A DNA stretch of 19,405 nucleotides, from the UHGV virus genome UHGV-0147800; one strand, 5' to 3'. Positions 50 to 3,962 of the stretch are shown here, piece by piece. The notes beneath the pieces were generated by a model. It was not told where the DNA came from, searched no databases, and saw only the letters and a program-made list of their open reading frames with translations. A program made the translations under genes and the position numbers. This DNA is from a virus. The first letter of the stretch is position 1. Every line of letters starts with the position of its first letter.

Positions 50-2794
50 TCAAATCGCGTTCAGGTCTTTCTTATTCAACCATGCTTCCAGAGCGGCAAC
101 ACTGCGTGTAATTTCTTCGTGTGGAAGGGGGGCAGATAATGGCTGCTGCTCCAGTTGTGCGCAAAGCTGGCTGGCGCTACGCATTCCCAGACTCGAGCAA
201 CTGCTTTTTAGCTGATGTGCGGCACGCTTTATTTTTTCGCTGTTCTGGCTGGCGCGGGCGATGTCGATGTCATCGAGAAGCGGCAGGGCATGTTGTTTAA
301 ATAATGCCAGCCATTCGTGGATCTTCTCCGTCCCCATTAACTGAGCATCTTCATTGAGTTGCGATACATCCAGCGGTTGATCGTTATTGACTTGCAGTTG
401 AAGATAGTGCGCCAGTAACTGACCGAGCACTTCACGCGGCACCGGTTTAGGGATAATCCCGCGAAATAATGAACTGGTACGCTGGCGCAACGTTTCGTCG
501 ATGACATGAGCGCTAAAGCCAATCAAAACCAGCGACGGATATTGCTGTGCCAGTTGCCGGGCAAGCGTAATGCCGTCGATATCGGGCAGATCAAAATCCA
601 CCAGTGCGGCAGCAAACGGTTCGCTATTTTGCAACGTCTCTATCGCGTGCGCGGCATTTCCTACCGCAACGACCTGCGCCCCACTGCTGTTCAACATCTC
701 AACGGTAATCCGCTGGGTTAGCGGGTTATCTTCAATTAACAGCAAACGTAAACCGTCCAGACGCACCGCCTGATTGACTGTTTTTGGCACGGGTGCAGTG
801 GCAACACGTAACGGCAAGCGTAAACAAAAACAGCTTCCAACCTCCGGCGTGCTGGTGGCGCTCAATTCGCCGTCCATCGCCTGGGCCAGACGGCTACTGA
901 TAGTCAGCCCCAGCCCGGTTCCGCCTCGTTTGCTGCTTACCTGAACAAATGGCTGGAAGATTTCTGCCAGTTTCGCGGGATCAATACCGCAGCCGCTGTC
1001 TTCCACTTCGACCAGCCATTGCTCGCCATCAGTGCGGCTACGTAAAACGATCTGCCCTTCGTCAGTAAAACGCAGGGCGTTGCTCAACAGGTTGGTTATA
1101 ACCTGACGAATACGTCGCGGATCGCCCATTAACGCGGTCGGTACATCGTCGGCAATTGCTGTTGCCAGGTGAATCGGGCGACCTTTAACCCGTCCGCTCA
1201 TTAATTGCAGGGTACTTTCCAGCAGCGGGCGCGGTTCAAAGGGCTCATCGCTGACCGAAACATTCTTGCCACCCGCTTCGATAGCCGAATAATCGAGAAT
1301 ATCGTTGAGGATGGTCAGCAACGATTCGCCAGAATCAGTAATTGCCCGCAAATCATCACGCTGGGTGTTAAGTGCCGGGTTATCTGCCAGCAGTTGCGCG
1401 GTGCCGAGAATACCGTACAGCGGTGTGCGGATCTCATGGCTCATCGCCGCCAGAAACGCCGATTTTGCCTGGCTGGCTTTTTCTGCTTCCGCCCGTGCCT
1501 GTCGGTGTTCTATCACTAGTTCCTGCAATTCAGCTGTACGCGCTTTGACCTGCGCCGCCAGCTGTTCACGGTGGCGATTCAGTGCATGAACACTGCTGCG
1601 AAACGCATCCATCAGCCGCCCGATGGTGTCCAGCTCCCGTACGCCAGCGGTTTCCGGGAAAGGGGAGTCAATATCACCGTCCAGCAGCCGTTGCAGCGCC
1701 TGCGTTTGTTCGGCAAGTGGACGCGTGACTGAGCGATAAACCACGCGCCAGAGGATCAGAATCAGTGCGCAAAGTGAAATCATCCCCAGCAATAACAGGC
1801 TGTATTGCCCGCGTGCACTGGCTTTTTCCAGATGCGCCAGTCCGTGCTGATTACGCAGCTCAATGGTGTCGACCAGCTGACTGACTTCGCTACTAAACTG
1901 CGCGAACTGGGCGATGTTATTTTGGGCGAGAGTTTGCAGGCGATTGCTGATTTCACTGTCCTGCTGATACAGCGCCAGCAAATCGCTATATTGGCTAACG
2001 GTAGTTAACGTTGTTGCGACCTGAGCACGAACTCCCGGATCTTCAATGCGTATTTGCCGACGTTGCAGAATTTTCACCGCATTATTGAGCTGGTGTTCCA
2101 GCGTTGCTGCATTTTTCTGGATCTGCTCCAGCCCCAGATTCATCACCATTTGCTGCACCCGCAGGGCGCTAAGGCGCAGTTCATTCATCTGGTTAACATA
2201 CTCAAGATCGATATCAATCAGCCGATCGAGTGCACTTTCTGCGGCCTGACGCTGATCTTGTTCAATCAAATCGTAAATCCCGGCCAGGGTCGCTCCGGCG
2301 GAGGTTGCCGCATTATTCGCCTGACCTTGCGCCAGGCGTGCGATTTCATCGGCGGCGGCGACTATCTGCTGACTAAGTTGCTGTTGTTGCTGGCGCAGTT
2401 GCAAACGCTGCCCCACCAGCTCCCCTTGTTGACGTAACGAACGGGAAATTTCCTGCTCCTGTTGTTCAATAGCGGTGGTATCAAAACCTTGTTCCCGTAA
2501 CGCTTGCAGCAACGCATTAATCTTCAGGCTTTGTGCGGTGAGCATTCGCCCCTGCGCCTGCCACATCTTTTCGTTATCGGCACTGGTCAGGTTCTGCGCG
2601 GCGAAAAGTTCCCAGGCGCTGGCTTCGCTCAACTGGCGCGCCATATTCATGGTAGGAATCAATGCCTGAGTGTTGTCTTTTTCCACCTGGCTGATAAAGC
2701 GCAGGTTGTACCATCCCACCAGGGTACTGGTCAGGGTTAACAGTGCCATCAGGGCAAAGCCCATCCAGAGTCTTCGGGTCAGGGTTAAATTCAC
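50..2794 (-). CDS. torS: Hybrid sensor histidine kinase TorS (TMAO respiration two-component sensor)
   Basis: 914-aa minus-strand ORF starting [10 protein letters not shown] with N-terminal TM segments, a second TM region, histidine kinase H-box ([11 protein letters not shown]), ATPase region, receiver domain and C-terminal HPt-like region. Matches E. coli TorS as recalled. Start codon is GTG at 2792-2794. Confidence 0.9.
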
Positions 2795-2803
2795 GGTCGG
2801 TGC

Positions 2804-2895
2804 ACTTAAGGTGAATAAGTTGTATATTTAAAATCTCTTTGACTATCAATGAATTAATATAAGCAGGTCATTATTAGTCAAAATAAAATCATTTG
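2804..2895. other. attL: core region plus IHF site and P' arm-type Int sites
   Basis: 2864-2895 CAGGTCATTATTAGTCAAAATAAAATCATTTG aligns with the recalled lambda attP P' arm CAGGTCACTATCAGTCAAAATAAAATCATTATTTG (P'1, P'2, P'3). An IHF-like site TATCAATGAATTA lies at 2844-2856. By spacing the core falls at about 2804-2820 (ACTTAAGGTGAATAAG), unlike the lambda core. Exact crossover cannot be fixed without attR or an empty attB. Confidence 0.6.
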
Positions 2896-3962
2896 TCGAT
2901 TTCAATTTTGTCCCATTCCCGTCCACGGCTATCCCTATACCGCGCAGCCATTGAATCTGATTTATGCCCGAGAAGACGTTGAGCAAACTTATCGCCAATC
3001 TGGTTCCGGTATAGCCTTGCTGACAGGCTACGCAGTTCATGGAATGTTGGCGGGTTTCCATCAAATGAGAGTCCAGATGCATTTCTCGCCTTTGTAAAAT
3101 ACTTTGATACTGTTTTCGGGGAAAGCGGATCGTGATGCTTTGATGCGATTATAGTTTCACTGCTGCTGGCCTCCCTGCATTTCTGTAGTGTATCAGCCAA
3201 TGAGATATTGAGCGCGTCAATCGTTAGCATTAGCGGAATGGCGAGTTTAGCCCCTGTTTTACTCTGTTCAATGTGAAGATGGTTGTCGTTTATGTCTGAC
3301 CATTTCATTCTGCATAAATCGCCCACTCTCTGCCCTGTAACGACAGCCAAATCCATCGCCAGCCTTAGCCAGATAGGGAGAGGTTCGGCTGCATGGTAAA
3401 TCTCGACATACTCATTAGCTGTCAGCCTTGAGCGCCTTACTTCTGACTTTGCTGTACGGGTTGCTGTTACCGGATTCGTTGCCACATGCCCCTCGGCTAT
3501 TGCTTCACGAAAAACGTCAACAAGGGTTGACCTGATTAATTTTGCGGAAGCTGCTTTACCTTCTGCTACGTAGGTGTTTAGCATTGCTGCCACATCTTTC
3601 GTTGATATGTCAGTGAGCGGTTTGTCCGGCAATTTTCTTCGGATTGCCCTGATTTTGCTGGCGTAGTCGAGTAGAGTTTTCGGCCTGATCCCCCTTTCGG
3701 TGAGGATTCTTTCATATCGGTCAAGCCACACATGAAGAGTGATTGCGTCACCGCCTTTAATTCTGTCTATCAGTGATTTGCGTCCGCTGTCTGAGAGTAA
3801 CTCAATATTGGCCTGTATTGCTTCAGTGATTGCTATCCTCCTGTCTCGGCCTAATCCAAACTCTTTACCCGTCCTTGGGTCCCTGTAGCAGTAATATCCA
3901 TTGTTTCTTATATAAAGGTTAGGGGGTAAATCCCGGCGCTCATGACTTCGCCTTCTTCCCAT
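2889..3962 (-). CDS. int: Tyrosine integrase, lambda Int family
   Basis: 357-aa ORF starting MGRRRSHERRDLPPNLYIRNNGYYCYRDPRTGKEFGLGRD and ending HELRSLSARLY...LLGHKSDSMAARYRDSRGREWDKIEIDK, colinear with recalled lambda Int including the catalytic R..H..R..Y region. Overlaps xis as in lambda. Divergent central and core-binding regions fit a different att specificity. Confidence 0.95.
   Translation of the reverse strand: MGRRRSHERRDLPPNLYIRNNGYYCYRDPRTGKEFGLGRDRRIAITEAIQANIELLSDSGRKSLIDRIKGGDAITLHVWLDRYERILTERGIRPKTLLDYASKIRAIRRKLPDKPLTDISTKDVAAMLNTYVAEGKAASAKLIRSTLVDVFREAIAEGHVATNPVTATRTAKSEVRRSRLTANEYVEIYHAAEPLPIWLRLAMDLAVVTGQRVGDLCRMKWSDINDNHLHIEQSKTGAKLAIPLMLTIDALNISLADTLQKCREASSSETIIASKHHDPLSPKTVSKYFTKARNASGLSFDGNPPTFHELRSLSARLYRNQIGDKFAQRLLGHKSDSMAARYRDSRGREWDKIEIDK

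Follow-up and report, generated by a model that had tools for sequence, protein, structure and literature searches.

An HK022-type lambdoid prophage, integrated directly upstream of torS, very probably replaces the native promoters of this gene with an outward-facing phage sigma-70 promoter, and thereby shifts the balance between TorS and TorT and the output of torCAD. The window, by which we mean the whole 19,405-nucleotide stretch of virus genome UHGV-0147800 analyzed here, contains a junction between host and phage DNA that, judged by homology, is the attL (B-O-P') of such a prophage at a standard E. coli site. Replacement of the torS promoter by a prophage was already published in 2019 for HK022 (Carey et al. 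2019, eLife 8:e49081, PMC6814406); the finding made in the window is correct, not new. For the present prophage, we computed the anatomy of the junction, its homology and its prevalence; promoter replacement and phenotype have been published for HK022 in K-12, and from this analogy we infer that the present prophage behaves in an HK022-like manner.

Anatomy of the attL junction

The attB site of HK022 is laid out as a 7-bp overlap between two 7-bp Int sites (PMC7736782), and occupies 21 bp within the 82-bp torS-torT intergenic region. When compared with the K-12 attB and the HK022 attP, window 2802-2822 proved to be a hybrid 21-bp core of the HK022 type, consisting of the host-side B site, the overlap and the phage-side C' site (Table 1). 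Because the core is a B-O-C' hybrid, this end of the prophage corresponds to attL. The reciprocal attR (P-O-B') lies outside the window, and was found in E. coli O7:K1 CE10, a strain that is base-identical to the window across the junction. In the core alignments, the first unambiguous phage base is 2816, and the int stop codon lies 73 bp from the junction. The original prediction, made from the sequence alone, had placed the att core at about 2804-2820, next to an IHF site and a P' arm, and its coordinates were right within a base or two. It had also placed the junction about 10 bp upstream of the torS start. The position upstream of torS holds, but the distance does not, as 22 bp separate phage base 2816 from the annotated GTG (2794), and 52 bp separate it from the ATG at 2764.

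The junction call rests on homology rather than on chance matches to motifs. We compared window 2500-3100 with 5,426 complete E. coli genomes using megablast, and unoccupied genomes, which were the majority, aligned at most to query base 323 (window 2822), where host homology ends. Phage homology, on the other side, begins at window 2805, with HK022, mEp235, mEp506 and Gally at ~95%. The empty-site comparison that had been suggested as a check, performed with the K-12 attB and with empty genomes, confined the crossover to 2809-2815 and left the native P1torS and the -35 element of P2torS beyond the retained DNA. Both homology and published lysogen experiments bear out the prediction that P' arm and int DNA now stands where the native torS upstream region would be.

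Within the P' arm, the block of arm-type sites P'1-P'3 overlaps the int stop codon (2889-2891) and is the best conserved, including in an alignment of 46 lysogens (PMC6814406, Supplementary file 2). Six substitutions distinguish the arm from that of HK022, at 2841, 2843, 2849, 2851, 2859 and 2864, all in its variable part, and the block 2868-2905, comprising arm sites and the candidate promoter described below, is identical to HK022. Across 2816-2910, only two differences (2841 and 2863) were found with respect to the Gally phage of LF82, a strain that shares its attL with the experimentally tested NRG 857C in the published alignment (PMC6814406).

Both int and xis are encoded on the same strand as torS. 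The integrase shares 96% identity with HK022 Int and 75% with lambda Int. Residues 1-55, which form part of the arm-binding domain, show no difference among the three proteins, and the catalytic residues R212, K235, H308, R311, H333 and Y342 are conserved in all of them. Five residues, 99, 282, 283, 287 and 319, reportedly determine the core specificity of HK022 Int versus lambda Int, a result ascribed to work by Dorgai, Yagil and Weisberg from 1995. At these positions, the window and HK022 carry D/P/K/K/R and lambda carries N/S/G/R/E. For residue 99, a role in determining specificity is documented (PMC10863862). An integrase of the lambda family with altered core specificity is what had been expected from the sequence, in agreement with the identity to lambda Int and the HK022-like specificity residues. 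The expectation of a non-lambda att site was likewise correct insofar as the core differs from that of lambda, but the site is the long-known HK022 attB and not an uncharacterized one.

Table 1 Features of the prophage-torS junction and att core sequences (B or equivalent / overlap / C' or equivalent)
Feature	Position	Strand	Description
torS, TMAO sensor kinase	50-2794	-	Annotated GTG start at 2794; RefSeq calls the identical CE10 sequence torS
P2torS remnant	2797-2809	-	Equivalent of the transcription start at 2797/2798; -10 at 2809-2804, TTAAGT here vs TAAAGT in K-12
B core-type Int site	2802-2808	+	Host-derived GCACTTA; K-12 reads GCACTTT
Overlap (crossover), 7 bp	2809-2815	+	AGGTGAA; same in attB, attP, attL and attR
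C' core-type site	2816-2822	+	Phage-derived TAAGTTG
IHF H'-type site	2844-2856	+	TATCAATGAATTA; aligned with lambda H' TATCAATTTGTTG
Arm-type Int sites P'1, P'2, P'3	2864-2894	+	CAGGTCATTAT, TAGTCAAAAT, AAAATCATTT; aligned to lambda, HK022, Gally and Stx1a phage
Best-consensus torS-directed promoter candidate	2870-2899	-	TCGACA-18-AATAAT; predicted start ~2863
int, HK022-type tyrosine integrase, 357 aa	2889-3962	-	Open reading frame and homology
xis, excisionase	3940-4158	-	Overlaps the int start
Window attL core	2802-2822		GCACTTA / AGGTGAA / TAAGTTG
K-12 attB core			GCACTTTAGGTGAAAAAGGTT; GCACTTT / AGGTGAA / AAAGGTT
HK022 attP core			ATCCTTTAGGTGAATAAGTTG; ATCCTTT / AGGTGAA / TAAGTTG
CE10 attR core, 54 bp upstream of the torT ATG			ATCCTTA / AGGTGAA / AAAGGTT

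Start codon and native promoters of torS

The GTG at 2792-2794, taken as the torS start in the original prediction, is disfavored by published lacZ translational fusions, in which translation was supported by the ATG only and not by the annotated GTG (PMC6814406). Translation most likely begins at the ATG at 2764-2762. Mettert et al. 2026 (PMC13644379) describe a 118-bp region extending from the torS ATG to the torT ATG, which corresponds to -82 to +36 of P2torS, -40 to +78 of P1torS and -95 to +23 of PtorT, with P1torS being approximately three-fold stronger than P2torS. In the coordinates of our K-12 locus (L001), the derived +1 positions are 1798 for P2torS, 1840 for P1torS and 1858 for PtorT, and the overlap occupies 1810-1816. 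Our own scan of this locus also recovered P2torS, as TTGCGA-16-TAAAGT with a start at 1798.

The +1 positions of P1torS and PtorT both fall on the torT side of the overlap, so that the insertion parts the torS coding sequence from P1torS. The -35 element of P2torS lies beyond C', and in the window phage DNA therefore stands in its place. Among native promoter parts, torS in the lysogen keeps the -10 element of P2 alone. The IscR site, in turn, stays with torT after integration (Carey et al. 2019, PMC6814406).

A host allele at base 2808

Base 2808 is an A in the window and a T in K-12. Assigning this A to the phage, which would imply a wider crossover, was rejected, as unoccupied attB sites commonly carry this allele too. 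A 77-mer representing the empty attB with A gave full-length exact matches in unoccupied genomes, and among records scoring at least 99%, the A version accounted for 1,332 and the T version for 2,184 of ~5,216 empty sites. By derived coordinates, the base corresponds to P2torS -11 and PtorT -49. The natural A reproduces the engineered change P2torS(A-11T)/PtorT(T-49A), which abolished P2torS (PMC13644379); natural polymorphism at this base goes unmentioned by Mettert et al. 2026 (PMC13644379). A minor new point is that a common host allele is, at the level of the nucleotide sequence, identical to the engineered P2torS knock-out. The allele may inactivate this minor native torS promoter; if so, P2torS could be lacking in about a fifth or more of E. 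coli that are not lysogens.

Prevalence of the junction

All 601 bases of the query were aligned in 193 of the 5,426 genomes (3.6%), and an intact attB was present in 5,216 of 5,415; prophages at this site were reported in ~5% of the genomes surveyed by Carey et al. 2019 (PMC6814406). CE10 matched at 100% over 2500-3100. It is base-for-base equal to window 1-4359; after ~4751, the window becomes a different lambdoid mosaic. CE10 is listed in Supplementary file 1 of the same study, and its attL in row 35 of Supplementary file 2 is that of the window (PMC6814406). Within the complete-genome collection, no E. coli genome covered more than 73% of the whole window. Records of Stx1a-converting phages matched the phage side at 95.5-98.2%, with H19J at 98%. 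Further into the prophage, an N-like antiterminator is encoded at 9726-10070, and a PADLOC search on the open reading frames in the rexAB position gave no match.

Transcription of torS in HK022 lysogens and promoter candidates in the window

Carey et al. 2019 found that integration of HK022 cuts torS off from its IscR-repressed promoters, and that the gene is then read from an outward phage promoter near attL (PMC6814406). In the MG1655(HK022) lysogen, expression of torS-lacZ was increased while that of torT-lacZ was unchanged, and an Omega terminator inserted at the O/P' boundary (window 2815/2816) abolished torS expression (PMC6814406). Furthermore, a 259-bp template spanning -231 to +28 of the torS ATG (window 2995-2737) yielded a single sigma-70 transcript in vitro, the start of which was placed inside the prophage by primer extension (PMC6814406). 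The text of that study bounds the HK022 torS start to the equivalent of window 2816-2995, and its authors found no clear -10 and -35 elements for the phage torS promoter (PMC6814406).

The HK022 lysogen lost aerobic torCAD expression as well as bet-hedging, and overexpression of torT brought aerobic torCAD expression back (PMC6814406). The same oxygen-dependent pattern was observed in the natural lysogen NRG 857C, where the evidence is at the level of the phenotype (PMC6814406). Consequences for TMAO regulation had been anticipated from the sequence, and these experiments on HK022 and on a natural lysogen match them. A study of LF82 draws the same inference for Gally (PMC9928086). Carey et al. 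caution that prophages at this site need not all behave alike (PMC6814406).

To look for promoter motifs in the window, we performed a strict sigma-70 consensus scan of 2650-4300 with a shuffled-sequence control, which returned one promoter-like match, TCGACA-18-AATAAT on the torS strand, versus 2.3 expected in the shuffles. As there is no enrichment over shuffled sequences, the promoter cannot be pinpointed from motifs alone. Under relaxed criteria, six candidates were obtained, with predicted starts at ~2863, 2849, 2847, 2846, 2835 and 2814. The one with the best consensus, TCGACA-18-AATAAT, a candidate for the outward torS promoter, is identical in HK022 and lies inside the equivalent of the published in vitro template (2737-2995). 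The ~180 bp of phage DNA adjoining the junction, in which such a promoter would be expected, show conservation of at least 95%. The two motifs singled out in the original prediction are not those with the best consensus, and each is without one key base of the -10 element, TTGACT-17-ATTAAT having no A-11 and TTGATA-17-TATACA no T-7.

Proposed mechanism and alternatives

In the mechanism that we propose, Int-mediated recombination into attB-HK022, with the crossover in AGGTGAA (2809-2815), would reduce the native DNA in front of the functional torS ATG to 51 bp. At the opposite end of the prophage, torT would keep P1torS and the IscR operator as well as the -35 element of P2torS. An outward sigma-70 promoter located in the P' arm or the 3' end of int would then transcribe torS, raising TorS relative to TorT. 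TorT-free TorS would act as a TorR phosphatase, so that torCAD would be silent aerobically and bet-hedging would be lost, while the anaerobic induction by TMAO would be retained.

The original prediction had attributed torS transcription either to the att/P' arm or to readthrough from int. Its origin in phage-derived DNA is upheld, but readthrough is not needed to account for it, given the transcript obtained from the 259-bp template. That torS is transcribed chiefly as an extension of int-xis transcripts initiated at pI or pL, with no dedicated promoter in the P' arm, appears distinctly unlikely to us, since this template contains neither pI nor pL and nevertheless gave a specific sigma-70 transcript starting inside the prophage (PMC6814406). 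Several features of the locus would nonetheless suit such readthrough. The int gene runs in the direction of torS, with its end 73 bp from the junction; on the torS strand between the two genes, we detected no terminator-like hairpin; and the sib/tI region is on the P-arm side and hence moved to attR in the prophage. The N-like antiterminator, moreover, implies that induced pL transcripts should reach torS, and the published Omega insertion alone cannot tell readthrough from a local promoter. On the strength of the lack of an int-torS terminator-like hairpin, the position of sib/tI at attR and the presence of the N-like gene, readthrough into torS upon prophage induction is plausible.

Transcription from the native start by a hybrid P2torS, combining the native -10 element (2804-2809) with a phage-derived -35-like hexamer, is highly improbable. 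A scan of the HK022/K-12 lysogen sequence does give TTTAAA-17-TAAAGT, whose predicted start coincides with that of native P2, but no P2 transcripts were obtained from lysogen DNA in vitro (PMC6814406). In addition, the -10 element of the window, TTAAGT, carries the A-11T change that abolished the engineered P2torS (PMC13644379), and the scan of the window does not recover the hybrid.

A dedicated outward promoter in phage DNA thus remains our preferred source of torS transcripts. The candidate promoter overlaps arm-type sites and adjoins the IHF H' site, and no terminator-like hairpin was seen between int and torS; for these reasons, the level of TorS may track the state of the prophage. TorS could be damped by occupancy of attL by Int, Xis or IHF, and could be boosted by N-antiterminated readthrough from pL on induction. 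Taken jointly, a TorS level that follows the prophage state instead of being plainly constitutive, together with a 2808 allele that would leave torS wholly reliant on phage sequence, is a tentative and rather doubtful reading.

Comparison with known systems

In the proposed mechanism, the prophage would alter host physiology by replacing a promoter at its attachment site and not by means of a cargo gene, and it would affect how TMAO respiration depends on oxygen, along with a bet-hedging strategy. The point about promoter replacement dates from 2019 and received further support in 2026, and the window represents another natural instance.

The junction resembles the attL of HK022 in K-12 in its attB, its overlap (AGGTGAA), its position at torS and its distance of 73 bp to the int stop codon. 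It differs from it in the six P' arm substitutions (2841-2864) and in the B site, which is GCACTTA instead of GCACTTT. The rest of the prophage in the window is also unlike HK022, being another lambdoid mosaic, which encodes an N-like antiterminator and differs in its immunity region. Natural prophages at attB-HK022 provide further parallels, namely Gally in LF82, the prophages of NRG 857C and CE10, and the Stx1a phages of STEC; records of Stx1a-converting phages annotate the insertion duplication. Finally, the junction is like the attL (BOP') of lambda at gal with regard to the Int family and to the arrangement of a core, an IHF H' site and three P' sites over the int stop codon. The core, the overlap, the core-specificity residues of Int and the host site, on the other hand, all differ between the two, and insertion at the lambda site does not cut a regulator gene off from its promoters in a comparable manner.

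Core site allele and the torS promoters

In the B core site of attL, position 2808 carries A, compared with T at the corresponding K-12 position (1809 of the torS-torT locus, L001). This position is -11 of P2torS, one of the two native torS promoters, and the T-to-A change found here is the same as the engineered A-11T mutation, which was reported to abolish P2torS (PMC13644379). That 2026 promoter paper makes no mention of natural variation at P2torS -11. The A at 2808 is a common host allele of the insertion site attB-HK022: of the unoccupied sites, about a fifth or more carry it.

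P1torS, the stronger of the native torS promoters, remains beside torT in the lysogen, as seen at the attR of the E. coli O7:K1 strain CE10 (L004 905-990). From that position its transcription would be expected to run into the P arm, which forms the prophage's right end.

In RefSeq, as in the ORF call, torS begins with a GTG at 2794 (914 aa); of the two candidate starts, only the ATG at 2764 has the support of published lacZ fusions (region 2762-2794; PMC6814406).

Prophage content and relationship to known genomes

The prophage is identical to that of CE10 as far as 4359 and turns into a different mosaic in 4360-19405. Among the complete E. coli genomes of the collection, the highest coverage of the window does not exceed 73%, so neither the source strain nor this prophage variant is represented among them.

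Features of the prophage
Feature	Position	Strand	Remarks
Terminator-like hairpin	4189-4208	-	int-xis strand; strong; AAGCCGCCTGATGGCGGTTT with T tract TTTCTT
Nmad5 gene	9041-9724	-	early left operon; nucleotide-modification-associated
N-like antiterminator gene	9726-10070	-	early left operon
Two ORFs	10503-11608	-	206 and 162 aa; phrog_5820, phrog_5893; function unassigned
cI-like repressor gene	11605-12252		

The hairpin lies just upstream of xis, and the Nmad5 gene immediately follows that of the N-like antiterminator (9041-10070). The phrog_5820 and phrog_5893 ORFs, for which neither Pfam nor PADLOC returned a match, could represent a lysogen-expressed moron. The two are co-oriented and lie directly 3' of the cI-like repressor gene, the place occupied in lambda by rexAB.
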